Shown one piece after another: positions 4,191 through 45,729 of a stretch of 63,650 bases of DNA. Under the pieces are notes generated by a model. It was not told the origin of the DNA, searched no databases, and saw only the letters and a program-made list of their open reading frames with translations. Numbering within the stretch: position 1 is the first letter of the stretch; each line of letters starts with the position of its first letter. A program made the translations under genes and the position numbers. Source of the stretch: an uncultured Candidatus Saccharibacteria bacterium (lineage in GTDB: Bacteria > Patescibacteriota > Minisyncoccia > Phycocordibacterales > CAIZLB01); assembly GCA_964627085.1 (NCBI GenBank), contig CAZVIP010000001.1:104114-167763 (forward strand), in the 5' to 3' direction.

Positions 4191-4793
4191 CTAAAGACTC
4201 ACTCCAAAAATCTCTTCTTTGAGCTCTTTGCCGAGCTCTTTTTCAACTTCATGTTTTCTTGTTGATACTAGGTGCATAATAGTGTCTTTGACTTCTTGTG
4301 GTCTAGGAATTTGCTGGAAGGTGAAGTGTTTTTCTGATCCAGCTGATTGTACTTTGATATTTCCGAAATTGACCATAGTGGCAAGTGCGCCATCAACATC
4401 GAGGGATACGTCTTGGATTTTATCAATAGCAAGCTCAGAGACACTTCTGTTAAAGAAGCCATGTTGAATACTGTTAATAATTCGCATATTTGTCACAATC
4501 CATGAGTCGAGTGTGTACATAGTAAGAGAGTAGAAGAGTGAGTACCAAAGGATGAGATAGTACAAAGCCCAGAGCGCTGCGAAAAAGGGGAGTAGGTGGA
4601 GCGATGAAATCGCTTTACCAAAAATACCTAGCACAATAAAAGGGATGAAAAAACCAACTGTAATAGCGAATATTTTGCTCGCAATTGTAAACCAATGTCT
4701 GTGGAGGAAGATAATTACTTCTTCACCTTCTTTTTTACCCTCAAACCCATAGGATGTTGAATATAGGAATGAAAAAATACCTTTAATACTCAT
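4191..4793 (-). CDS. membrane protein with a bacterial PH (YdbS/YdbT-like) domain
   Basis: Two or three TM helices followed by ...VNFGNIKVQSAGSEKHFTFQQIPRPQEV, which is typical of bPH_2 domains. Confidence 0.45.
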   Translation of the reverse strand: MSIKGIFSFLYSTSYGFEGKKEGEEVIIFLHRHWFTIASKIFAITVGFFIPFIVLGIFGKAISSLHLLPFFAALWALYYLILWYSLFYSLTMYTLDSWIVTNMRIINSIQHGFFNRSVSELAIDKIQDVSLDVDGALATMVNFGNIKVQSAGSEKHFTFQQIPRPQEVKDTIMHLVSTRKHEVEKELGKELKEEIFGVSL

Positions 4794-4794
4794 A

Positions 4795-5043
4795 TTATTG
4801 ATTAAAATTAAATAGACTAATATTGCTTATATTAAGGATTTGACCAAAATCCACTTGAGAAAAGAGGAGTACTGCAACCATGGTGAGAACAAGCGAACCC
4901 GCGAGAAAGATAACCGCGATGCGCTTAGGTTGTCCACTCACACCGAAACGAATAAGGTGATAAAGAATAAAAAAGGAAGCCGTCCAATATACTAAAACCA
5001 CAAAAGCGAAAATTAGCTTGGCGATATCATTAGCTGTAAGCAT
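4795..5043 (-). CDS. small integral membrane protein
   Basis: 82 aa with two hydrophobic helices. The adjacent stop and start leave a 1-nt gap to the downstream gene, suggesting co-transcription. Confidence 0.4.
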   Translation of the reverse strand: MLTANDIAKLIFAFVVLVYWTASFFILYHLIRFGVSGQPKRIAVIFLAGSLVLTMVAVLLFSQVDFGQILNISNISLFNFNQ

Positions 5044-5092
5044 GGATAGATTATATCACCAAAAAACAGCCTGTAGTTGGATAGGCAGGTGT

Positions 5093-5632
5093 TTAACCCC
5101 GAGAAGTGCGTTGGTTGTATCTAAAGCTGAACCAGACTACTTCCATAGCCTTCAATTCTTCAATTGGCTCAAGTTTGTATTTTTGTAGGCCACTTTCATT
5201 TGTTATGCCGTAACTTGTTTTTTTATCTGCAACGAATCGGGCAGATTCTTGGGTGTTATTGGTATCTATGAATGAAAATTTAGTGTTATCAACTAAATTT
5301 TGTAGCACCGGAAGTGTTGCACAGGTATTTTCGTGTAAAACATCTCTTCCTGTTTTTTTCACCAAGAAAAGCCTTGGGTTTGGTATTGAAAAAAGTAAGC
5401 TTTTGTCCCAGTCAAAATGCTTAGCAAAGGTGAGTTCTTTAGCTATGTCATTTAGGTGGGGTACTAGCATGATTGTCTCGCTAGAGTTTGTTTGGATCAA
5501 TAATTCCTTGGCCTCTTGAAATGATTTTACAAACATAATCTCCGGGTTAAGACCGAACGACTCAATCATGTGCAAAACCGCCCTGTGACAACAGGTGTCT
5601 TCTTCTAGTGAAATTATTTTCTCAACTTTCAT
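5093..5632 (-). CDS. hypothetical protein, possibly a prephenate-dehydratase-like (PDT) domain without an ACT domain
   Basis: The C-terminal pattern NTQESARFVADKKTSYGITNESGLQKYKLEPIEE resembles the PDT-domain pattern (S..aa..va.g..d.aI.s..aa..y.L). Confidence 0.3.
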   Translation of the reverse strand: MKVEKIISLEEDTCCHRAVLHMIESFGLNPEIMFVKSFQEAKELLIQTNSSETIMLVPHLNDIAKELTFAKHFDWDKSLLFSIPNPRLFLVKKTGRDVLHENTCATLPVLQNLVDNTKFSFIDTNNTQESARFVADKKTSYGITNESGLQKYKLEPIEELKAMEVVWFSFRYNQRTSRG

Positions 5633-5685
5633 TTTACTTAATTAGCAATACTGTTGCTTTTCGCCTACGTGTTTACTTTAACTAG

Positions 5686-5757
5686 TGGTCCCATTAGGAA
5701 TCGAACCTAAATTTTGAGTTCCGCAAACTCATGTCCTATCCATTGAACGATGGGACC
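5686..5757 (-). tRNA. tRNA-Arg (anticodon GCG)
   Basis: The reverse complement ggtcccatcgttcaatggataggacatgagtttgcggaactcaaaatttaggttcgattcctaatgggacca has acceptor ggtccca/tgggacc and anticodon loop ttGCGga. Confidence 0.85.
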
Positions 5758-5821
5758 ATGGGGCTTTTTATAACATATTATATAGATAAAACAAAGCCCT
5801 ATGAATAGGGTTTTGTTGGGT

Positions 5822-6292
5822 TTAGAACCCTAACCTTTCCATTACTTTCTGCAGGAACGGTTCATAGTGTTCCTCTTCGAGGAGGTGGTGCAGTAGGAAA
5901 TCCCGGATATCCAATGGGCTTACACCTTCGATTGGAATAACGATAAGGGCACCTTTGACACCTCTAGGTTTAAAAAAAAGTTTAGATGGTTCATCAGTGT
6001 GGTCATTATTTTCAACCCAAAAAGAACGAAGTGTTCCAAAAGGTTTCAGTTCTTTGTCTATAAGGACACCAGCTTTGCTGATCTCGAAACGTACAAGTTT
6101 TGGCACTCGCTTGCTTGCAACAATAAGGGCAAAAGTGGACACAACTATTACAATTGCGAACATGATATTTCCAAGAATAACTGAGATAAGGGCGATTGAT
6201 CCTGCAATAATTCCTACTGCCCAATACCAGTCGCTTGTTTTTTCGACGTGATCATATTCAAGTGCTTCCCAAATTAGAGGTCCTTGTATCAT
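5822..6292 (-). CDS. membrane protein, function unknown
   Basis: 156 aa with two central TM helices. No recognised motif. Confidence 0.45.
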   Translation of the reverse strand: MIQGPLIWEALEYDHVEKTSDWYWAVGIIAGSIALISVILGNIMFAIVIVVSTFALIVASKRVPKLVRFEISKAGVLIDKELKPFGTLRSFWVENNDHTDEPSKLFFKPRGVKGALIVIPIEGVSPLDIRDFLLHHLLEEEHYEPFLQKVMERLGF

Positions 6293-20494: not shown

Positions 20495-23400
20495 ATGTCA
20501 AAACACAATAAAAAAATCATAAAAATAGTCTCTTTTTTCATTGTGCTTTCGTTTACATTTCTCACAACCACGGCTCAAGCAGCTGTTCCAACACAATCAA
20601 TTGCATTCCATGGTCAACTCACAGCTTCTGGATCTGTGGTTTCTGGATCAAAGTCAATCATATTCCAATTCTACGATGCTTCATCTGGCGGATCTGCCGT
20701 CGGCTCTGCTATTTCAAAAACAACAACTGTTACTAGTGGATATTTCAGTGTAGTTTTCAGTGCCTCAGATCTTTCTAGTGTCGATCTGAATCAAGCTCTC
20801 TGGATTGGTGTCACTGTCGAAGGGGATGTACTTTCTCCGCGTCTTTCGATTAATTCTGTTCCATCTTCTATAAATACTTTTGGAGTTTTTTCATACGCAT
20901 CTGCACCAGCTGTCGGTTCGGCGGGTGCGCTTTATTACAATACCGGTGATTCAAAAACCTATGTATCAAATGGTGCTGCATGGATTGAACTTGGCGGAAG
21001 TCAGTGGACAACAACTGGTTCTGATGTGTATTACAACACCGGAAATGTCGGTATTGGTACCACAACACCAGGGTCAAAACTCGTCGTCGCAGGACAAATT
21101 ACAACTGACGGCCTCGTCAGTCTTTCAACAACAGCGACTTCAACATTTGCAGGCCCTGTCACTCTCGCGAGTCATTGTATCGCAGCAGAGACAAGATTCA
21201 GAAGAAGAAAGAAGGATCAAGACGGTGAAGTCGAAGAGGTCGACCTTGAAGCCCTCGAGATCGGAGACTATGTTGAATCATTCGATGAAACAACTCAAAC
21301 AGTTGTATTCAAGAAGATCGAAAACATTTTTGTTATGGGTATCAAATCAATCATCAAGATTGATACACAAAAAGGATACAGTATTAAAACAACTGAAGAG
21401 CATCCATACTATGTGACAATAGGAGAAGGGGAAAAAGGTCAGTGGGTCAAAGTGAAGGATATATCAGTTGGTGACGGTATTGCAGTTATTGACTCTGCCA
21501 ACCGAACAGTGTTCTTTGATATTGTCACTACAATCTCAAACCTTCCCGAAGAAGAAGTGTATGACCTTGAAATCGAAGGTACACATACATTCATCGCAAA
21601 CAACATTGTTGCACACAATACATATGTACAAGGTGGTCTTGGTGTCGGAGTACTCAACACTTCAGCAGGAACTTTTGCATTGAAACAAGCAACAACCAAT
21701 GCTGTTATCTTGGGTGATGTGTCAGGAAATACGAGAGGAAGTTATGCGCTTGATTTGCAGACGAGGAGATCTGTTGTAAATCAGATAGCCTTTGGAGCGT
21801 GTTCTACTGCGGTTGGAAATGACAATTGTGCATCTGGTTGTCGTTCTGCTTCTTTGGGTTGGGGTAATGCAGCAACAGGGATTTCATCTTTGGCAGCTGG
21901 TAGTAATAACACTGCTTCTGGTATAGATTCTTCCGCTGTGGGTTCCGGCAACTCTGCTTCGGCTAATTTTTCTTCTGCATTTGGTTGTAATAACTATGCC
22001 ATTGCTAGTTGTTCTACGGCATTAGGACTTAGAAATCAGGCTTGCGGTGTTAATTCTACTGCAGTGGGTAGTGTTATTGTCGCTTCTGGTGCGTGTTCTG
22101 TGGCAGTAGGGAATGATAATTGTGCATCTGGTGGTCGTTCTTCAGTTTTTGGTTCTCAAAACACTGCCTCTGGCTACCGTTCTTCGGCTTTTGGATCAAG
22201 TATAATTAACTCGACTGCAAACTCAGTTGAAATTGGAGCCTCAAACACAGAAAAACTCCAAATCTCATCTGCTGGAGTCAACTTTGTCACCGCAGGTGCT
22301 GGTGGGTTCTGTGTAAATGGTGTTGCGATGGGTGGTGATGTAAATAATCTTTGCTCAATTCAGGTTGGTTACTCTAACACTGCTTTTGGTAATAGTTCAT
22401 CTGCTGTAGGTTTTTGTAATAATGCAGCGGCTGTCTACTCTTCCGCTCTTGGTTATTTCAACACTGCATCAGGTTATTATTCAACCTCTGTTGGTCATCT
22501 CAACACTGCGTCTGCATGTTGTTCGTCTGCTCTAGGATCCTGCAACATGGCTTCTGCTAGTGGGTCAACTGCTGTGGGCCAACGAAATACCTCTTCTGTT
22601 ATGAGTTCTTCTGCTTTTGGCTTCGGTAATACTGCATCTGGTTACTATTCTTCTGCAATTGGTTTTAGTAATTGTACTTCTTGTACGGGTTCTACTGCAG
22701 TAGGTTATTGCAATACTGTGTCCAATTATTCTTCTTCAGCTTTTGGATCAAATATAACTAACCCAACTGCGTGTTCTGTTGAAATCGGAGCCTCAAACAC
22801 AGAAAAACTCCAAATCTCATCTGCTGGAGTCAACTTTGTCACCGCAGGTGCTGGTGGGTTCTGTGTAAATGGTGTTGCAGTAGGCGGAGGGAGTGGGGAT
22901 GTAAACGCACTCTCGGTTGTTGCTGTTGGATGTGGTAACAGTTCCTCAGGTACTTACTCTTCTGCTTTTGGAATTAGTAATTCCGCTTCAGGAAACTGCT
23001 CTTCTGCTTTTGGATATGCTAATACCGCTTCAGGATACCGCTCTTCTGCGTTCGGATCAAGTATAAATAACCCAACTGCGTGTTCTGTTGAAATCGGAGC
23101 CTCAAACACAGAAAAACTCCAAATCTCATCTGCTGGAGTCAACTTTGTCACCGCAGGTGCTGGTGGGTTCTGTATAAACGGCTCATTGGTCGGTGGTTGT
23201 TCAAATCCTAACGGACTATCACTTGTTGCTGTTGGATGTGGTAATACGGCATCTGCATACTACAGGTCTTCAGCATTTGGTATATGTAACTCTGCATCGG
23301 CGTGTTTCTCAACTGCAGTTGGTTCAAATATTACCAACTCAGCATCGTATTCTGTTGAAATCGGAGCCTCAAACACAGAAAAACTCCAAATCTCATCTGC

Positions 23401-24940
23401 TGGAGTCAACTTTGTCACCGCAGGTGCTGGTGGGTTCTGTGTAAATGGTGTTGCAGTAGGCGGAGGTGACGTGAATGCACTTTCTACGATTCAGGTTGGT
23501 TGTGCAAATACTGCTTCAGGTTATAGGTCTTCTGCTTTAGGGTACATGAACTGTGTGACAGAAGGCTTTTCGACGGCCTCAGGGTATTACAATGTTGTTT
23601 CAGGTGGAAGCTCGGTTGCGGTTGGAAATTTTAACTGCTCAACCTCTCTTAGTTCGCTTTCAGTAGGTCTTTCAAATACTGCATCAGCACAGTACTCTTC
23701 TAGTGTAGGTATTCAGAATCTGGCTTCAAATCAAGGCTCAGTGGCTTTTGGGTACTGCAACACTGCTTCAGGTTATTGTTCCTCTGCTGTCGGTAATACA
23801 AATACTGTTTCTGGTGGTGGAGCAAGTGGATTCGGTTATGGTAATACTGTCCCAGGTTACCGAGCGACTGCTTCAGGTTATTCAAATACTGCATCTGGTC
23901 AATATTCTGCAGCTTTTGGTTTTTCTAATCAGGCAAATTGTGATAGTTCACTTGTCTTTGGTAAGTGCTTAATAAATGATATTGCCGCTTCGACAATGGT
24001 TGGGCAGGCAGGTGGTTGGATAAGTTTATTGGCTAACGGTGAAATAAATACTTCATCCGGTGCCAGTCTTACATCTGGAGGAACTTGGACAAATGCATCT
24101 GACAGAAATCTCAAGGAAAACTTTGTTGAATTAGACAAAGAAGACATACTTACAAAAATCAACTCACTTCCACTTACAAAATGGAATTACAAGACTGAAG
24201 ATTCTTCTATAATGCATATAGGGCCTATGGCACAAGATTTCTATGCCACATTTGGTCTTGGTGGATCTGATAAGTCTGTATCAACTATTGATCCTGCAGG
24301 TGTTGCGCTTGTTGGTGTGCAGGCGTTGTCAGGAAAAGTTGATAATCTATATGTAGAATTGGGTCTACTTGCGACAAGTACTGATTCAAATTCGAACCAA
24401 GGTGGAATTATCAGTTGGATTAAAGCGCTCGGGGCAACTGTGGTTGATGGTGTTGCACACTTTGTAAATGTTGTTGTTGGAAAGATTACAGCTTCTGATC
24501 TTACAATCAAAAATGAAACTGATGTTCACAAGACTGGTTATGTGATTTATGACCGAGCGACAGGTGCACCACTTTGTGTTTTCTTTGAAAATGGAATTCA
24601 GAAAACTGAACCAGGTGAATGTGATGACTTACCTGTACCTCCTCAGCAAAATACTGGAGGTACTCCAGCGGGTGATACTAGTAGTACCGGTGACACCTCA
24701 AATGCAAGCAGTACAGATTCTGGCGGATCAGGATCAGATACACCATCACCAGGTGGTGATATAGGAGGCGGGGTGACTGATAATCAATCTGATACAGGCT
24801 CTACTCCGGCAGGTGATTCAGCTCCAACGGGCTCATCTGGATCAGATACGCCAACTGTAAATGACCCTGATCCGACACCTGAGCCTACGCCTGCTCCAGC
24901 ACCGGAACTAGGGCCCGCCCCGGCTCCTTCTACTGAATAA
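20495..24940 (+). CDS. 1481-aa secreted adhesin / tail-fibre-like protein: signal peptide, fibre N-domain, inserted Hint (intein/BIL) domain, YadA-head-like SxAxGxxNxAxG repeats, peptidase-S74 intramolecular chaperone domain and a Pro/Thr/Ser/Gly-rich tail
   Basis: Signal peptide MSKHNKKIIKIVSFFIVLSFTFLTTTAQA, NTGNVGIGTTTPGSKLVVAG fibre motif, dozens of 14-residue SSAFG..N.ASG..S repeats, and the SDRNLKENF...HIGPMAQDF S74 signature. Confidence 0.85.
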   Translation: MSKHNKKIIKIVSFFIVLSFTFLTTTAQAAVPTQSIAFHGQLTASGSVVSGSKSIIFQFYDASSGGSAVGSAISKTTTVTSGYFSVVFSASDLSSVDLNQALWIGVTVEGDVLSPRLSINSVPSSINTFGVFSYASAPAVGSAGALYYNTGDSKTYVSNGAAWIELGGSQWTTTGSDVYYNTGNVGIGTTTPGSKLVVAGQITTDGLVSLSTTATSTFAGPVTLASHCIAAETRFRRRKKDQDGEVEEVDLEALEIGDYVESFDETTQTVVFKKIENIFVMGIKSIIKIDTQKGYSIKTTEEHPYYVTIGEGEKGQWVKVKDISVGDGIAVIDSANRTVFFDIVTTISNLPEEEVYDLEIEGTHTFIANNIVAHNTYVQGGLGVGVLNTSAGTFALKQATTNAVILGDVSGNTRGSYALDLQTRRSVVNQIAFGACSTAVGNDNCASGCRSASLGWGNAATGISSLAAGSNNTASGIDSSAVGSGNSASANFSSAFGCNNYAIASCSTALGLRNQACGVNSTAVGSVIVASGACSVAVGNDNCASGGRSSVFGSQNTASGYRSSAFGSSIINSTANSVEIGASNTEKLQISSAGVNFVTAGAGGFCVNGVAMGGDVNNLCSIQVGYSNTAFGNSSSAVGFCNNAAAVYSSALGYFNTASGYYSTSVGHLNTASACCSSALGSCNMASASGSTAVGQRNTSSVMSSSAFGFGNTASGYYSSAIGFSNCTSCTGSTAVGYCNTVSNYSSSAFGSNITNPTACSVEIGASNTEKLQISSAGVNFVTAGAGGFCVNGVAVGGGSGDVNALSVVAVGCGNSSSGTYSSAFGISNSASGNCSSAFGYANTASGYRSSAFGSSINNPTACSVEIGASNTEKLQISSAGVNFVTAGAGGFCINGSLVGGCSNPNGLSLVAVGCGNTASAYYRSSAFGICNSASACFSTAVGSNITNSASYSVEIGASNTEKLQISSAGVNFVTAGAGGFCVNGVAVGGGDVNALSTIQVGCANTASGYRSSALGYMNCVTEGFSTASGYYNVVSGGSSVAVGNFNCSTSLSSLSVGLSNTASAQYSSSVGIQNLASNQGSVAFGYCNTASGYCSSAVGNTNTVSGGGASGFGYGNTVPGYRATASGYSNTASGQYSAAFGFSNQANCDSSLVFGKCLINDIAASTMVGQAGGWISLLANGEINTSSGASLTSGGTWTNASDRNLKENFVELDKEDILTKINSLPLTKWNYKTEDSSIMHIGPMAQDFYATFGLGGSDKSVSTIDPAGVALVGVQALSGKVDNLYVELGLLATSTDSNSNQGGIISWIKALGATVVDGVAHFVNVVVGKITASDLTIKNETDVHKTGYVIYDRATGAPLCVFFENGIQKTEPGECDDLPVPPQQNTGGTPAGDTSSTGDTSNASSTDSGGSGSDTPSPGGDIGGGVTDNQSDTGSTPAGDSAPTGSSGSDTPTVNDPDPTPEPTPAPAPELGPAPAPSTE
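21176..21619 (+). mobile_element. 148-aa mini-intein / bacterial intein-like (Hint) domain inside the adhesin ORF
   Basis: It starts at Cys228 (ASH|CIAAETRF, block A). Block B is KTTEEHPYY (TxxH), block F is VYDLEIEGTHTFIANN and block G is IVAHN|T, with Thr as the +1 residue. There is no endonuclease domain. Confidence 0.8.
22226..23456 (+). repeat. four near-identical in-frame direct repeats of about 100 bp within the adhesin gene
   Basis: Copies lie at about 22226-22327, 22778-22880, 23087-23181 and 23354-23456. Each reads gttgaaatYggagcctcaaacacagaaaaactccaaatctcatctgctggagtcaactttgtcaccgcaggtgctggtgggttctgt... and encodes SVEIGASNTEKLQISSAGVNFVTAGAGGFC.NG. There are only 1-3 differences between copies. 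Confidence 0.9.
24098..24350 (+). other. peptidase S74 (endosialidase-type intramolecular chaperone, self-cleaving) domain
   Basis: S1202-D-R-N-L-K-E-N-F..LTKWNYK..HIGPMAQDF..GVALVGVQAL matches the sDerlKenI...hiGfiAQe consensus as I remember it. Confidence 0.7.
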
Positions 24941-31467: not shown

Positions 31468-32019
31468 TTGAGTGAATTCTCCCAGAGTGCATTTAAGTGG
31501 TATGATATGACTTATATGTCTCTGCTTTCATTCTTACGCCGCCAACGCGGTGTCTTCTTGGCTCGGTTGGAATTGATGATAGTTGTTCTTGTCCCAGCTG
31601 CTACGCTCTTCCTTCTTGTGGGTTGGTTTATTGATGCTAATCCGAAATATTCCAGCATTGGTGTATATATTATTGCGTTCGGTCCACTTGTAATTGCATT
31701 GGTATATTACATCTTTAAATACATAGCTTCGCGGCGTGATGGAGACAAAATAAATTTGCAGAGTGAGGTAAGGGAACCGACAGTAAACGGAAACGCTGTT
31801 GTGAGCAATGTTGGGGCAAGAAAAAATATTATACTTGGAATCGTTGTATTGTTTAGTGTGAGCGTGTTTGTATTCATCACTCTAAATATCATTGGATTCA
31901 ATGATTTGAATTTAGCTCAGACAAGTGACAAAGAAAAACTTATTTCGAGTTTTGTCTTAGGTCTTATTGCGGCTTCTGTGTTTTTTGAGAAAGCGTGGAA
32001 GTCGAGGTGGGGGAGGTGA
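31468..32019 (+). CDS. membrane protein, function unknown
   Basis: Four hydrophobic helices. TTG start in the ORF track, with ATG alternatives downstream. The last roughly 8 nt overlap a copy of the tRNA-Ser 3' end. Confidence 0.45.
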   Translation: MSEFSQSAFKWYDMTYMSLLSFLRRQRGVFLARLELMIVVLVPAATLFLLVGWFIDANPKYSSIGVYIIAFGPLVIALVYYIFKYIASRRDGDKINLQSEVREPTVNGNAVVSNVGARKNIILGIVVLFSVSVFVFITLNIIGFNDLNLAQTSDKEKLISSFVLGLIAASVFFEKAWKSRWGR

Positions 32020-32215
32020 GATTCCTCTTCAGTCGTGTTTTCTGCTTCGCTTTGCTCAGATCGAAAACACTCATTCAGAGTCGGGTCATAAAATGTGAGA
32101 TTCGGTCACAAATAATTTCTTCGCCGTCGCTCAGAAATTTTTGCGACCCCGACTCGCGACCTCGCCTGCTGGCTCGGTATACGCTCCGTCTTTCTCATCA
32201 GCACAACCTCTCGAC
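32012..32215 (-). repeat. tRNA-Ser-linked structured repeat region, a rearranged relative of the tRNA-Arg/His-flank elements
   Basis: Read on the minus strand downstream of tRNA-Ser, it contains gtcgagagg (compare gctcgagagg at 36584). It shares the motif gagcgacggcgaagaaattatttgtgacc (24/29 identical to 36707-36735). It has a hairpin gtgttttc...aagcgaagca gaaaacac. It carries two direct copies of the tRNA-Ser T-arm 3' half (gaatctcac; plus-strand 32095-32105 and 32012-32024). Confidence 0.5.
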
Positions 32216-32220
32216 AAAAT

Positions 32221-32255
32221 AAAAACACATTGCAGCAGTGCAATGTGTTTTTATT
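32221..32255. terminator. hairpin terminator downstream of tRNA-Ser
   Basis: aaaaacacattgc-agca-gtgcaatgtgttttt, flanked by A/T runs on both sides. Confidence 0.6.
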
Positions 32256-32261
32256 TTGATG

Positions 32262-36314: not shown

Positions 36315-36469
36315 GTTCTGTTAAATCTAGGTCAGATTGATTAGTTTGGCTAAAGCAGGTGTTGGGTTCGGGTATCGCGTTTGGTGTGTTTTGCATTGAG
36401 GGTGCCTGACGATTGATTGACCGCGAGCCACCTTGCTGTTATAAATATAGGGTATTTCAAATTTCACAC

Positions 36470-36541
36470 GCTCTCGTAGTTCAATGGATAGAACTGCGGA
36501 CTTCTAAGCCGTTAATGTTGGTTCGATTCCAACCGAGAGCA
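36470..36541 (+). tRNA. tRNA-Arg (anticodon UCU)
   Basis: gctctcgtagttcaatggatagaactgcggacttctaagccgttaatgttggttcgattccaaccgagagca has acceptor gctctcg/cgagagc, anticodon loop ctTCTaa (one A-G mismatch at the base of the stem) and T-arm gttgg-ttcgatt-ccaac. Confidence 0.85.
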
Positions 36542-36581
36542 CACTATAAAAAAACACCCACCCGGGTGTTTTTTTATAGTG
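36542..36581 (+). terminator. long hairpin terminator directly after tRNA-Arg
   Basis: cactataaaaaaacaccc-accc-gggtgtttttttatagtg. Confidence 0.65.
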
Positions 36582-36736
36582 TGCTCGAGAGGAAGCACGG
36601 GGTGCTTCCGTGTTGGAATCGAAGCCTGATTGAGCGCAGTTTGCGAGTGAAGCGAAGCAAAATGCCCAATCAGGGTACTGGCCCCTGTAAGGGGCGATTC
36701 CAACCGAGCGACGGCGAGGGGATTATCTGTGGCCAC
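36582..36736 (+). ncRNA. candidate structured element (tRNA-flank element, Arg copy, 'filled'), five helices plus a conserved tail motif
   Basis: tgctcg(P1)-agag-gaagca/cgggg/tgcttc(P2)-cgt-gttggaatc(P3)-gaag-cctgattg(P4)-agc-gcagtttgc/gagtgaagcgaa/gcaaaatgc-c-caatcagg(P4')-gtact-g-gcccc/tgtaa/ggggc(P5)-gattccaac(P3')-cgagcg(P1'). The tail is acggcgaggggattatctgtggccac. The helices covary with the His copy at 44343-44476. Confidence 0.5.
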
Positions 36737-36808
36737 AAAACTGAGACAGACCGAGAGGTTTGAAATATAAGAAAAGACCCCACGATTTTACTCGTAGGGT
36801 CCTGAGGA

Positions 36809-37681
36809 CTATCTGGACAGAACTTCAAAAGGACCGAAGCATAGGTAGGAATCAACAAACGCTTTGAATCCCACCATTGCTCGATTCAGAGATTCCAGTT
36901 CGTTTTCTTTTATCTCAATCTCGATAGCGAAATTGTAGGTATGGTTTCCAGCGTGGACGGAGTGGATTTGAATCAGATTCAATCCTTCCTGCTCAAACGG
37001 CAACAACGATCTGACCAATGCTCCTGGACTATGGGGTACCTTGAAAACTATCAGGACACGATTTTCTTTCCCGACCGATACATGGTGTGAAGCAGGTGCG
37101 ATGAGGAAGAATGTAGTGACGGCCTCTCCGTCCTCGAACGCTTCATCAAGAACCTTCAATCCGTATTTTCCCGATGCGGATTTTGGTCCAAGTGCCGCGG
37201 CGCTCAGGTATTCGTCGCTTTCAGCCACGAGTCTTGCGGCTTCACCATTACTCGAAGCATCGGTTGTCTGAAGAGCTTTGTTTGCGATTCGTCCTTTACA
37301 TGCCCCTAAAGCCTTAGGGTGCGCGACAATTCTGGAAATTTCAGATTCAGAAATACCGGGTTGCACCATCAAGCAGAAGTGGAGCTTCAGTCGAATTGCT
37401 CCGACTACACGGAAGTTACATTCACTCATACTTGAGTAAGTTTTCAGAAGCTCGATGAATGATTCTAGTGGTTCAGCTACCCTGCCTTCTGCTAGAGTTT
37501 CTATGGCGATGGCGCCATAGCCATCATGCTGCTGAATGAGCCTAAGGATTTCTCCGTTTGAGACTGCTGGTTGGCAGTTTACAGCATTTACTTTTGGAGC
37601 ATCGTATATTTCCGCAAGAATATCATAGGCATCGTGCGAGAATGTTGCCCCTATAGGACCAAGAAACGTTATGTTTTTCAT
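36809..37681 (-). CDS. pheA: prephenate dehydratase (PDT domain + ACT domain)
   Basis: ITFLGPIGATFSHDAY N-terminus. The ACT domain reads RVLIVFKVPHSPGALVRSLLPFEQEGLNLIQIHS...YNFAIEIE. The start is the internal ATG (MKNITF). GC is visibly higher than the backbone (30/60 in the line starting at 37141). Confidence 0.75.
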   Translation of the reverse strand: MKNITFLGPIGATFSHDAYDILAEIYDAPKVNAVNCQPAVSNGEILRLIQQHDGYGAIAIETLAEGRVAEPLESFIELLKTYSSMSECNFRVVGAIRLKLHFCLMVQPGISESEISRIVAHPKALGACKGRIANKALQTTDASSNGEAARLVAESDEYLSAAALGPKSASGKYGLKVLDEAFEDGEAVTTFFLIAPASHHVSVGKENRVLIVFKVPHSPGALVRSLLPFEQEGLNLIQIHSVHAGNHTYNFAIEIEIKENELESLNRAMVGFKAFVDSYLCFGPFEVLSR

Positions 37682-37975
37682 ATGCTTTATCTTTTTGTAT
37701 GTTGTTGTCAATATACTATTTCCACAAACAAAAACCGCCATCCGAGGGGATAGCGGTTTGTTTGTGGAGTTTCTACAACGCTAATTCACCCTTCGGATTT
37801 CCGAGTTCTTAAAAAAGAAACCAAAGAATGAATTTGTGTGTATCACATCCCCATAGTACCGAAGCTTATTTGTTTTCGCAAGTCGACCCCGACCGAGGTG
37901 TCCCCAAATTAATATTGCAAAATCTTCCAGACAATACCCATGGGGTCTCATTGTGAATTTTCCAAGGCCGAGCTC

Positions 37976-38086
37976 GAGCACACTATAAAAAAACACCCGT
38001 GTGGGTGTTTTTTTATAGTGTGCTCGAGAGGAAGCACGGGGCGATTCCAACCGAGAGACGGCGAGGGGATTATCTGTGGCCACAAA
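37976..38086 (+). repeat. second, 'empty' copy of the tRNA-Arg 3' flank (terminator hairpin + ctcgagaggaagcacgggg + cgattccaaccgag + tail motif)
   Basis: gagcacactataaaaaaacacccgtgtgggtgtttttttatagtgtgctcgagaggaagcacggggcgattccaaccgagagacggcgaggggattatctgtggccacaaa is near-identical to 36536-36740, apart from the hairpin-loop tetranucleotide, one tail substitution and the absence of the 92 nt at 36603-36694. Confidence 0.85.
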
Positions 38087-38157
38087 TTAAAAACCCGCGA
38101 GTTACCTTGTTAGGGGTTTCTCGCGGGGTAAAGGTTGATAACCAGAAAGGCCTTTCG

Positions 38158-38643
38158 TTAGTCTTCCTCCTGCAGGGTAAACTCACCACTCTCAAGACCA
38201 CTTGTTTGTTGGTTTTTTACTTGAACCTCAAGCCAAGCGATAAGTGTTGTGGCGATACTGCGTGCGATTTGCTCGTCAACATTTGCTGGGGCACCGCTGC
38301 AAGCAACGATAAGTCCTGGATAGTAAACTCCTCCTGCCCAGAAACAGTCTCCATCTTGCATAGCCGCAGGGTTTTTGAGCAGTTCTCCAGTGTCCATTTC
38401 GTGACGGGCGCATGTCATTGCTTTTGAGTTGGCAACGGCAGCGTAATCTCTTTTGTAATCTGTCGTGTTTGGTTGTCCGAGTGGTCCATGGTGCCTCGTC
38501 TCCCACATGTCACTTATCCTATCAGTTAGTGTGAGGATGGTTACATGGAGATGCTCTTTTCCATATAAGAATGGTAGTAGATCGTTGACAACTTTGATGT
38601 GTGCATCCACAACCTTGGTGATGACTTCATTTGGTATTTTCAC
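38158..38643 (-). CDS. hypothetical protein, possibly GlcG/HbpS-like (DUF336)
   Basis: WAGGVYYPGLIVACSGAPANVDEQIARSI resembles the GGg.pi...g..iGaiGvSG....DE.iA pattern. Weak evidence. The gene is GC-richer than the backbone. Confidence 0.3.
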   Translation of the reverse strand: MKIPNEVITKVVDAHIKVVNDLLPFLYGKEHLHVTILTLTDRISDMWETRHHGPLGQPNTTDYKRDYAAVANSKAMTCARHEMDTGELLKNPAAMQDGDCFWAGGVYYPGLIVACSGAPANVDEQIARSIATTLIAWLEVQVKNQQTSGLESGEFTLQEED

Positions 38644-44061: not shown

Positions 44062-44230
44062 CCTGTGTCTTATAAAAAAGGCTGTGCGTACAGTTTACTA
44101 CTTTGTTGTTCGCAAGTGCTTTGATGGCTCCTGGACTTTTTGCCCATTTTTCTGTATAAAGAGTGTGTCAGCCACGTTTTAGATCTGTGGCCATCCAGCC
44201 GCGCACCAAGGACATGCTGACAAACAATAT

Positions 44231-44304
44231 GGTGACTATAGTTTAGTGGTAAAACTCCGGTTTGTGGAACCGGTATCGAGAGTTCGATTCTCTCTAGTCA
44301 CCCA
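44231..44304 (+). tRNA. tRNA-His (anticodon GUG) with an encoded G-1 opposite C73
   Basis: ggtgactatagtttagtggtaaaactccggtttgtggaaccggtatcgagagttcgattctctctagtcaccca has anticodon loop ttGTGga and T-arm gagag-ttcgatt-ctctc. Confidence 0.9.
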
Positions 44305-44308
44305 CGAG

Positions 44309-44334
44309 AAAAAATCCCCGTCAGGGGATTTTTT
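44309..44334 (+). terminator. hairpin + T-run directly after tRNA-His
   Basis: aaaaa-atcccc-gtca-ggggat-ttttt. Confidence 0.65.
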
Positions 44335-44342
44335 CGTAGTGA

Positions 44343-44476
44343 GGTGACTAAGCAAGCGCGGGGCGCTTGCGGGAGAGAATCGAAGACCTTTTGAGCATAT
44401 TTTCGAGTGCATCGCACGAAGAAAATATCCAAAAGGTGTACTGGTCCTGTAAGGACCGATTCTCTCTAGTCACCCA
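44343..44476 (+). ncRNA. candidate structured element (tRNA-flank element, His copy)
   Basis: ggtgacta(P1)-ag-caagcg/cgggg/cgcttg(P2)-cgg-gagagaatc(P3)-gaag-accttttg(P4)-agc-atattttc/gagtgcatcgcacgaa/gaaaatat-cc-caaaaggt(P4')-gtact-ggtcc/tgtaa/ggacc(P5)-gattctctc(P3')-tagtcacc(P1')-ca. The 3' 19 nt are a verbatim copy of the tRNA-His 3' end. Confidence 0.5.
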
Positions 44477-44490
44477 CGCAAAAAGAAAAC

Positions 44491-44527
44491 ACGCCATCCA
44501 GCTTCTGCTGGATGGCGTGACGTTTTT
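44491..44527. terminator. strong bidirectional terminator
   Basis: acgccatccagc-ttct-gctggatggcgt (12-bp stem), with T-runs on both strands. Confidence 0.7.
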
Positions 44528-44565
44528 CATTTGTAACCTACCGCCGGAGCGGTGGGTGTTATGCC

Positions 44566-45729
44566 TCAATCTTCGTTAAGGGTCTGGAGTGTGAATCGGT
44601 GTTCAGACACGCTTGACTCATTGGTCAGCCTTGACCAATGGATGGGTTTGAAGGAATCACCAAAAGCTCCGTCTTCACGATAGTCGTCTTCCAGGAACAA
44701 TACAGCGCCATGATTTTGCGAGAGGTTATTGCTTGCAAAACTCGGCCATCGTCTATACCAGGTCGCCTGCTCAGATTTCGGGTAGAATCCAATGTGCGTG
44801 TTGCAGTATGAGTGTAGTTTGGGTAGCGCAATGGTTGGAACATCAAACTTCCAGACACCCATTTTGTCTTGGTTTGCACGATTGAATTTCCGACGAACTT
44901 CTTCGACATCAAATCCGATCATCATAAAGCCAATACTGAATCCTCCATACCACAAAGTAGCTGTGTCGCTTCTGGGGATTGTGAGGAACTTGTAGCTCAT
45001 TAGGTTGTTTGAGCCCACCGTTCTCTGGATCTCATCAAGGATATTACGCATTTTACATGCGCTCTCTTCAAAGATAGTGGTTGGGGAGAACGGATGCAAT
45101 AGTATGCTTTGGTCAAGAATGTGCTCTCTCATTTCTGGGAAAGTCTCCAAGACACTGTTTGTGAGTTCACGCACTGGCACAACCAACTCATTTTCAAGGC
45201 CGCTGATGTCTTTTGCTGCCTCGCTCAATCTGGTCACAAATAACCACCTTGCGAGAAGGAATACACGATCTGCATCAGGGATGAGGATTGTGACCTGAGT
45301 TGTTTGTTCAAGGGGGGTGACTTCACCTTCGAGGATATTTCCTTTGATGGTGAGAGCCCGGAGTAGCTTCTCGTATGCGTGAGAGTGCCCGTCGCGCAGA
45401 AGCGTCGAGAGCAAAGTCAGCATAACTTTCCGCGGTGCAGACCATTTCGTGAAGTGTCGAAGTGCTTCTGTGGGTGAGAACCCAGACTTCGTCCTGTATT
45501 CAAAGCCAAGAATTACCTCGGGATTGAAACTGTTGAAGTTACCTCGGCATTTACCGAAGGCCTTGTTTCCTCCAAGTTTTTGGAAAAGCATTTCCATTTG
45601 CTCGGCAGGTGTTAGTGTTTGCACGCTGGGTGCGGTGGTGACCAGTGCAGTTTTTTGGTCTGTTTGGACTGCTGTGTCTGTCTTAGGCATTTTATGTTCC
45701 TCTAAGTAGCAATCCCTGGGGATCGCCAT
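44566..45729 (-). CDS. hypothetical protein (387 aa), no recognisable family
   Basis: Long ORF with a GC-rich composition relative to the backbone. No catalytic or NTP-binding motif recognised. The start may be the internal MPKTD. Confidence 0.55.
   Translation of the reverse strand: MAIPRDCYLEEHKMPKTDTAVQTDQKTALVTTAPSVQTLTPAEQMEMLFQKLGGNKAFGKCRGNFNSFNPEVILGFEYRTKSGFSPTEALRHFTKWSAPRKVMLTLLSTLLRDGHSHAYEKLLRALTIKGNILEGEVTPLEQTTQVTILIPDADRVFLLARWLFVTRLSEAAKDISGLENELVVPVRELTNSVLETFPEMREHILDQSILLHPFSPTTIFEESACKMRNILDEIQRTVGSNNLMSYKFLTIPRSDTATLWYGGFSIGFMMIGFDVEEVRRKFNRANQDKMGVWKFDVPTIALPKLHSYCNTHIGFYPKSEQATWYRRWPSFASNNLSQNHGAVLFLEDDYREDGAFGDSFKPIHWSRLTNESSVSEHRFTLQTLNED

Follow-up and report, generated by a model that had tools for sequence, protein, structure and literature searches.

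A pheA cassette between duplicated trailer elements of a tRNA-Arg gene in an uncultured Patescibacterium

Members of the Patescibacteria (the candidate phyla radiation, CPR) have minimal genomes with almost no amino-acid biosynthesis, and their mobile DNA is poorly known. How, then, does a single gene for phenylalanine synthesis come to lie between two copies of the sequence that follows a tRNA gene in such a genome, and is it still moving? We analyzed this question in a 63,650-nucleotide (nt) stretch of contig CAZVIP010000001.1 (assembly GCA_964627085.1, positions 104,114 to 167,763), called the window below, in which a tRNA-Arg(TCT) gene (36470–36542, + strand; ARAGORN; Rfam 66.3 bits) is followed by two direct repeats enclosing a pheA-like gene. 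A sequence-only reading of this DNA had described the repeats as differing by a precise 92-nt insert and the gene between them as cargo. We find that the 92 nt are better read as the core of a structured element that recurs behind tRNA genes, that the pheA unit spreads among distantly related Patescibacteria, and that the repeats may recombine in the population of the strain itself.

Two copies of the tRNA-Arg trailer

A repeat search paired 36537–36609 with 37976–38048 (73 nt, 92% identity) and 36691–36739 with 38038–38086 (49 nt, 98% identity), whereas shuffled controls gave an expectation of 0 chance matches for the repeat pieces. Precise global alignment of copy 1 (36537–36739, 203 nt) with copy 2 (37976–38086, 111 nt) showed them to be collinear with three differences only: the loop of the leading hairpin (ACCC in copy 1, GTGT in copy 2), a single nucleotide polymorphism (C36708 versus A38055) and a 92-nt gap (36603–36694) with GGGG at either edge. 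The direct repeats and their exact, GGGG-bounded difference were therefore as first described, and the same is true of the pairing of the 92-nt block with both flanks: TGCTTCC inside the block pairs with the upstream GGAAGCA, and GTTGGAATCG(AA) with the downstream CGATTCCAAC. The GTTGGAATCG(AA) strand also pairs over 12 nt with the tRNA's own TTCGATTCCAAC.

Both copies carry sequence of the tRNA itself. The last 19 nt of the tRNA gene (CGATTCCAACCGAGAGCA) are the source of a repeated core, and the fragment CGATTCCAACCGAG(A/C)G is present three times, at 36524, 36695 and 38042, with degenerate copies at 36748 and 37960. Copy 1 opens with a terminator hairpin (36537–36586, + strand; 23-bp stem) whose 5' arm begins within the acceptor 3' strand of the tRNA. 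The counterpart in copy 2 (37973–38028, + strand) has a 26-bp stem and overlaps a degenerate tRNA-Arg 3' end (37960–37980, + strand; TTCCAA(GG)CCGAG(CTC)GAGCA) that is shared by the pheA cassette, as its right end, and by copy 2, as its left end. The rest of copy 2 (38029–38086, + strand) comprises a truncated structured element with a deletion junction at 38041/38042, the core CGATTCCAACCGAGAG and a tail. Beyond it stands a distal terminator-like hairpin (38094–38127, + strand) shared with a convergent open reading frame (ORF) of 161 amino acids (aa).

The tail of copy 1 (GACGGCGAGGGGATTATCTGTGGCCACAAA; 36710–36739, + strand) represents the 3' part of another family of small repeats, which we call type 2. 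This 30-nt tail family also occurs behind tRNA-Ser in the window, behind tRNA-Arg in the related sequence L050, after the structured element in L051 and beside pheA in L047. The tRNA-Ser(TGA) trailer (31990–32260, − strand) includes the tRNA 3' end in two incomplete direct copies (GAATCTCAC...) as well as GAGCGACGGCGAAGAAATTATTTGTGACC, which is homologous to the tail behind tRNA-Arg, and it looks like a decayed array of the same repeat families.

A structured element behind tRNA genes

In copy 1 the 92 nt form part of a complete tRNA-shaped element, termed type 1 (36583–36712, + strand), which is delimited by covariance model R1 (121.6 bits), by the minimum free energy (MFE) fold and by covariation. 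An outer stem GCTCG/CGAGC encloses the hairpin P1 (36591–36609), a stem S formed by 36612–36621 with 36695–36704, a long hairpin P3 (36624–36675), the motif TACTG, and a hairpin P4 (36681–36695) with the loop TGTAA. The window holds a second element behind tRNA-His (44232–44303), at 44346–44474 (+ strand; 125.3 bits with the covariance model), where the trailer (44304–44540) consists of a terminator, the type-1 element and a second terminator, and where the stems GTGACTA, GAGAGAATCGAA and CGATTCTCTCTAGTCACCC are copied from tRNA-His.

Comparison with related sequences showed that type-1 elements constitute a conserved family of ~130 nt, each member just downstream of a tRNA gene. At least six related metagenomic genomes contain them, the tRNA in front being tRNA-Arg(TCT), tRNA-His or tRNA-Ser, and all share one plan of outer stem, P1, stem S and the hairpins P3 and P4. 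Wherever a relative has this tRNA-Arg or an ortholog of it, the trailer runs in the order terminator hairpin, 5' acceptor-strand copy, P1, a 12-nt block, an interior of 70–90 nt and a copy of the tRNA 3' end. Stem S is the 3' half of the tRNA T-loop and T-stem paired with its exact complement, the 12-nt antisense block being a perfect complement of the adjacent tRNA's T-loop and T-stem 3' strand in all cases. Thus T-arm 3' halves reading CCAAC, CCTGC, CCTAC and CTCTC are matched by element blocks reading GTTGG, GCAGG, GTAGG and GAGAG, respectively, and TTCGAAT-CTCAC is matched by GTGAGATTCGAA. The stems of the element replicate the T-arm of the neighboring tRNA and usually also its acceptor stem; in L051 the outer stem is retained as GGTCT/AGACC although this is not the acceptor of its tRNA.

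Four independent copies fold into an identical MFE architecture, and RNAalifold assigned 42 pairs to the family, 28 of them with compensatory changes. In a six-sequence alignment 92.7% of the cells were paired, as against 68% in shuffles (0/500) and 36–48% with slid partners, percentages that lean toward the model because the alignment was fitted to it. On the tRNA-sense strand there were seven G.T against one A.C. Searches of Rfam 15 returned only noise for 36400–38200 (at E up to 10) and 44200–44600 (at E up to 1), so that no family there matches the element, and ARAGORN and Rfam (RF00005) called the true tRNAs only. We also considered a ribozyme, given a hammerhead-like CUGAUUGAG in P3, and rejected it, as the motif is not kept in other copies and has no Rfam match. 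Literature searches found no description of such tRNA-trailer elements in the CPR, nor of pheA in Patescibacteria. The type-1 element is a previously undescribed structured element with strong covariation and without an Rfam match. With mascRNA and the viral tRNA-like structures it shares an acceptor-like stem stacked on a T-arm-like stem directly after an RNA gene, and its G.U pairs favor the sense strand. It differs from them in that two hairpins replace the T-loop, the D and anticodon arms are absent and the stems are copied from the adjacent tRNA.

This family bears directly on the origin of the 92-nt difference (36603–36694, + strand), which comprises the 3' strand of P1, the 5' strand of S, P3 and P4, all of which are removed in copy 2 and in a population allele, L012, described below. 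Interiors homologous to the 92 nt are present behind tRNA-Arg in L035, the second unit of L039 and L051, in the tRNA-His trailer of the window and behind tRNA-Ser in L037, and have in common GAATCGAAG, a long P3 with TTGAGC, (G)TACTG and a P4 loop (T)GTA(A). In L035 the filled form stands behind the same tRNA-Arg, and in L039 and L051 behind tRNA-Arg genes with other T-stems (CCTGC and CCTAC, respectively). The form without the 92 nt was found only in copy 2 and L012. We therefore read the 92 nt as the core of a conserved type-1 element and not as an insertion, the filled copy probably representing the ancestral, intact state. A deletion between the GGGG repeats, which the sequence-only reading had offered as its alternative, is the better reading because filled homologues are conserved behind three tRNA species and the 92-nt-less form is confined to this lineage; copy 2 would then derive from a filled element by a 92-nt deletion between GGGG microhomologies.

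The explanation first preferred was instead the insertion and excision of a small base-pairing element, that is, a 92-nt mobile unit (88 nt plus a GGGG duplication) that entered an empty trailer and left copy 2 and L012 unoccupied. Such a unit would account for the GGGG on either side, for the pairing with both flanks and for the existence of an allele without the 92 nt. It sits poorly with the filled architecture being the conserved state behind tRNA-Arg, tRNA-His and tRNA-Ser and with the two strands of P1, which co-vary as one unit in all relatives, L033 having P1 complete and the right half of the element absent. Nor are there terminal inverted repeats, the exact 52-nt insert core has no other occurrence in the window, and L012 also lacks pheA, as expected from recombination between the copies. 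Taken together, these points make an insertion very improbable. Derivation from a miniature inverted-repeat transposable element (MITE) or an insertion sequence was rejected, since the ends TGCTTCC... and ...GTAAGGGG are not inverted repeats and GGGG is the sole flanking repeat; dispersal of the MITE type was likewise rejected, with no second insert core in the window and homologues only within complete tRNA-linked elements.

Several relatives show rearranged trailers. The element of L034 (495–625) is near-identical to that of L035 (958–1094), except that its 3' end gives way, exactly at the P4|CGA boundary, to that of another tRNA (TTCGAATCTCCCTCTCTCCGCA), which points to recombination at the T-loop position between the trailers of two tRNA genes. 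L039 (3380–3520, − strand) has two tandem elements behind tRNA-Arg, each with GCAGGAATCGAA and terminating in TTCCTGCCAGGGGCA, the first of the two having a type-2-like interior. In L032 (5396–5992) the whole unit of tRNA-Arg and element is inverted relative to the pil operon; P1 contains an insertion of ~110 nt, and a further element, belonging to another, off-contig tRNA, lies just upstream. The motif GCGAAGC, known for forming an unusually stable DNA mini-hairpin, recurs in the trailer elements of tRNA-Arg (36648–36660) and tRNA-Ser (32043–32055, − strand).

The pheA unit and its distribution

The only real gene between the two copies encodes a prephenate dehydratase (PDT) domain (Pfam PF00800, 88 bits against a cut-off of 25, E = 7.7e-25), and the earlier description of a lone pheA between tRNA-derived repeats with no integrase nearby was confirmed by Pfam analysis of the ORFs together with the repeat search. 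The gene (36809–37682, − strand) starts at the ATG at 37682, not at 37741, and specifies 290 aa comprising the PDT domain and a C-terminal region, as identified by Pfam, by homologues and by a sub-cut-off NCBIfam match (NF008865, 113 bits, under the equivalog cut-off of 219). Its family is abundant in Patescibacteria, and we assign the protein to a divergent, CPR-typical PDT subfamily. On the minus strand the gene is preceded by an upstream region, a leader peptide ORF (37781–37846, − strand; VIHTNSFFGFFFKNSEIRRVN*) with a GTG start and a Phe-rich stretch (FFGFFF) that is kept in L039 and L040, and an attenuator terminator between leader and gene (37732–37759, − strand); it is followed by a second, predicted intrinsic terminator (36774–36803, − strand). 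The left end of the cassette (GAGACAGACCGAGAGGTTT; 36743–36761, + strand) contains a degenerate ACCGAGAG core.

Rfam Phe_leader (RF01859) matched 37728–37836 weakly (27.4 bits, E = 0.064, below the gathering threshold of 55). As in the enterobacterial pheL-pheA arrangement described by that family, a Phe-rich ORF and then a terminator lie directly upstream of the prephenate dehydratase gene; the locus differs from it in the GTG start, the Patescibacterium host, an enzyme without a chorismate mutase domain and the sub-gathering score. Comparison across genomes shows what we predict to be a self-contained unit with its own promoter, Phe-leader attenuator and terminator. It is thereby also unlike an integron cassette, since this promoter and attenuator are kept across hosts and the window contains no IntI, attI or Pc. 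The enzyme is a lone PDT-type protein in a lineage expected to be without aromatic amino-acid synthesis, and its substrate may be prephenate or arogenate supplied by the host.

The unit is far more conserved than its surroundings. The protein is 82% identical to that of L039, where RuvX, the tRNA-binding protein and PilM/N/O are 27–50% identical to those of the window, and 84% identical to that of L040, where the neighbors are 29–45% identical. DNA identity of the cassette is 79–83% across hosts from 36742 to 37985, including the non-coding leader and terminator. We found the unit in five different genomic contexts, three of which have flanking direct repeats, namely the window, L040 (17 nt, tRNA-3'-like) and L048 (~28 nt, imperfect); in L039, L046 and L047 such repeats are absent or undetectable. 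The ends of the cassette carry CCGAG cores. In L051, the closest relative by core genes, pheA is absent from this locus, and the stretch between tRNA-Arg and tRNA-Val differs among relatives. Because the identity of pheA is far above that of its neighbors and extends to non-coding sequence, and because of the five contexts and the flanking repeats, comparison shows a cassette that has, on this sequence evidence, spread horizontally among distantly related Patescibacteria, and it often seems to land beside sequences resembling tRNA 3' ends. The cargo-like behavior proposed for the segment was in this respect supported by the contrast between 79–83% DNA identity in the cassette and 27–50% identity in neighboring core proteins. 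Its supposed compositional signature fared less well: the excess in GC has the right sign but is modest, 46.5% for pheA against 40.5% for the rest of the window instead of about 50% against about 38%, and other window genes reach 47–50%, so that composition is weak evidence of foreignness.

An origin of pheA outside the phylum was rejected, as its closest named homologues are from Paceibacterota and Parcubacteria, as is the case for the ribosomal protein L19 of the window. PilM, RuvX, RluA, L19 and FolD are all encoded in the window, which is therefore a segment of bacterial chromosome, and the closest named sequences to L19 come from Parcubacteria, Paceibacterota and Taylorbacteria; we accordingly place the host, by sequence, as a probable Paceibacteria-like member of the Patescibacteria, the label "Saccharibacteria" being without backing from the L19 neighbors. 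An identical tRNA-Arg is also present in three GTDB metagenome-assembled genomes, all from lakes. Elsewhere in the window (20495–24940), a 1481-aa protein unites a Peptidase_S74 (endosialidase chaperone) domain with YadA-head repeats and an intein/Hint domain, and its make-up suggests a large, intein-containing protein of the surface or tail-fiber type.

Recombination between the trailers

To follow the locus in the strain's own population we used contigs of the Logan collection, which are short-read k = 31 de Bruijn contigs throughout. Contig L001 matches 39400–36605 at 100% identity and thereby runs from the right flank through copy 2 and pheA and across most of the 92 nt, and L010 and L013 cover the left flank up to 36593. 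The assembly of the window is thus backed by independent contigs that reproduce the joins on either side, the link across the 39-nt block shared by the two copies being beyond proof from k = 31 contigs.

Other contigs depart from the window. L012 (5196 nt) is 100% identical to it in both flanks over 5.2 kb, yet lacks both pheA and the 92 nt and reads tRNA, hairpin (ACCC), 39-nt block, CGATTCC... and right flank, which suggests presence and absence of the cassette within the same strain. L002 is 1469 nt long and, through an end overlap of 30 nt (k−1), closes into a 1439-nt cycle that reads from the pheA leader side through the hairpin (GTGT) and the 39-nt block into the 92 nt; a circular or excised junction of the kind that the earlier reading had led one to look for is thus suggested by a k = 31 contig. 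One crossover within the 39-nt block common to both copies would give L012 and L002 as its two reciprocal products, the junction in L002 then standing for a tandem duplication or else for a 1439-nt circle that had been excised. A further contig, L005, combines the context of copy 2 with the loop of copy 1.

On this evidence we propose the following course of events. The trailer of tRNA-Arg would be built of small structured repeats, with a duplicate trailer on the far side of a 1.2-kb pheA cassette, and the resulting 66/111-nt direct repeats would now recombine in this population, as the contigs indicate. One crossover in the 39-nt block would yield the allele without pheA and without the 92 nt (L012), and the same crossover would yield the reciprocal junction (L002) as a tandem duplication or a 1439-nt circle, depending on whether it occurred as an unequal exchange (deletion plus tandem duplication) or as an excision (empty site plus circle). 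That the two trailers now recombine with each other, most simply through the host's homologous system, and so drive the present loss and amplification of pheA is in our view somewhat better supported than not. No recombinase domain was detected in the neighboring and large window ORFs scanned with Pfam, NCBIfam and PHROGs, nor in the Logan Pfam annotations within 10 kb. We rejected the idea of a recombinase hidden in the orphan ORFs of 161 and 387 aa, which have no Pfam, NCBIfam or PHROG match and whose sequences are unsuggestive. These ORFs (38158–38643 and 44566–45729) directly follow the trailer elements of tRNA-Arg and tRNA-His on the distal side, are GC-richer (47%) and are each alone in their 90% cluster.

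A number of observations weigh against this proposal. Because the copies share a 39-nt block and the contigs were built at k = 31, any path through them could be chimeric. The model leaves the first arrival of copy 2 beyond pheA unexplained and gives no reason why the stems of the element should track the tRNA. The T-loop CGA is the exact position of breakpoints between L034 and L035, at the repeat of L040 and at the right edge of the 92-nt gap, as would be expected of a site-specific recombinase that targets the T-loop rather than of RecA. With regard to spread, L039 has the order tRNA-Arg, element, pheA without a distal repeat, so that vertical retention and repeated targeting are not separable at that locus, and purifying selection could partly account for the high identity of pheA.

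The first of these objections can be taken further, in that the population might hold a single fixed structure and L012, L002 and L005 might be chimeras created where the assembly graph passes through the palindromic hairpins and the shared blocks of 39 nt and 30 nt. Most Logan contigs indeed break exactly at the shared blocks, and at k = 31 a shared block of 39 nt invites such errors. L012, however, is continuous for 5.2 kb, L002 closes on itself without branches, and for both to arise the alternative branches must have been absent or much rarer in those samples; moreover, the two forms are reciprocal and derive from one crossover interval. We consider an artefact improbable.

The breakpoints raise a different possibility, that the pheA unit is an integrase-less cassette resembling a cis-mobilizable element (CIME), cut at tRNA-3'-end-like cores by a recombinase encoded elsewhere, excised as the 1439-nt circle (L002) to leave the empty site (L012) and reinserted at tRNA trailers of other hosts. 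The tRNA-3'-like direct repeats that flank pheA in the window, L040 and L048 fit this picture, as do the CCGAG cores at the cassette ends, the closed cycle of L002 and the placing of breakpoints at the T-loop CGA, both between L034 and L035 and at the repeat edge of L040. In the relative L049, too, the 3' end of tRNA-His is adjoined by an island with a large serine recombinase. The picture is weakened by the lack of a recombinase linked to any pheA copy in the five contexts examined, by the repeats being absent or undetectable in L039, L046 and L047, and by the crossover interval of L012 and L002, which appears to fall not at the CGATT core but within the 39-nt block that separates the hairpin loop from the deletion point. 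Action of an integrase in trans is therefore a real but rather unlikely explanation. The island of L049, of ~4.7 kb, is headed by a gene for a 531-aa large serine recombinase (4459–6116) that ends inside the 3' end of tRNA-His; the tRNA-His locus there is without a type-1 element. A phage or plasmid origin was rejected, since blastn of 36400–38200 against phage records matched the tRNA-Arg only. Scans of IMG/VR for the tRNA 3' end returned nothing, and scans for the type-1 motif gave only chance matches (phage tmRNA, coding sequence).

Known mobile systems resemble the locus in part. The Dehalococcoides ssrA islands are reportedly tRNA/tmRNA-gene islands bounded by direct repeats of the gene 3' end, including tandem arrays. 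Here, similarly, the last 16–19 nt of the tRNA, from the T-loop, are repeated and delimit variable downstream DNA, the tRNA gene is intact and several repeat copies stand in a row; unlike those islands, the pheA unit has no integrase inside or beside it, its cargo is a single 1.2-kb gene unit, and the repeats extend past the tRNA core to 111–203 nt of structured trailer. CIMEs are att-flanked remnants of integrative elements without an integrase of their own. The pheA segment is like them in lying within att-like direct repeats without recombination or transfer genes, in its apparent presence and absence in a population and in its possible excision, whereas there is no sign of descent from an integrative and conjugative or mobilizable element or of a cognate integrase, and the crossover interval fits homologous recombination equally.

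The attP(+) site of CTX-phi and the attC site of integrons are recombination sites formed by folded single strands. The type-1 element has, like them, inverted target-like arms ~90 nt apart that fold into a target-mimicking duplex, a structure conserved above its sequence and an association with single-gene cassettes; it lacks any XerCD, dif or IntI/attI context, its target-like sequence is a tRNA T-arm, and a single-stranded intermediate is here without sequence or experimental support. Type-1 elements might accordingly be new tRNA-matched folded modules, of RNA or single-stranded DNA, that serve as exchange sites for single-gene cassettes without a linked integrase. Their stems would then be templated on, or selected to match, the T-arm and acceptor of the adjacent tRNA, and the elements would be to tRNA trailers what attC is to integrons or attP to CTX-phi, or else would act as recombination sites of a guide-like kind. 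We regard this as unlikely.

For the biology of these bacteria, the locus presents a complete, Phe-attenuated pheA unit that appears to circulate among distant Patescibacteria, and, on the evidence of k = 31 contigs, the gain, loss or amplification of pheA within one strain population through tRNA-trailer repeats. It also brings to light a structured element that accompanies tRNA genes and whose stems are copies of theirs. If this element turns out to function as an RNA gene or as a site of recombination, it would open a new approach to gene flux, or to the biology of tRNA, across a large uncultured part of the bacteria.

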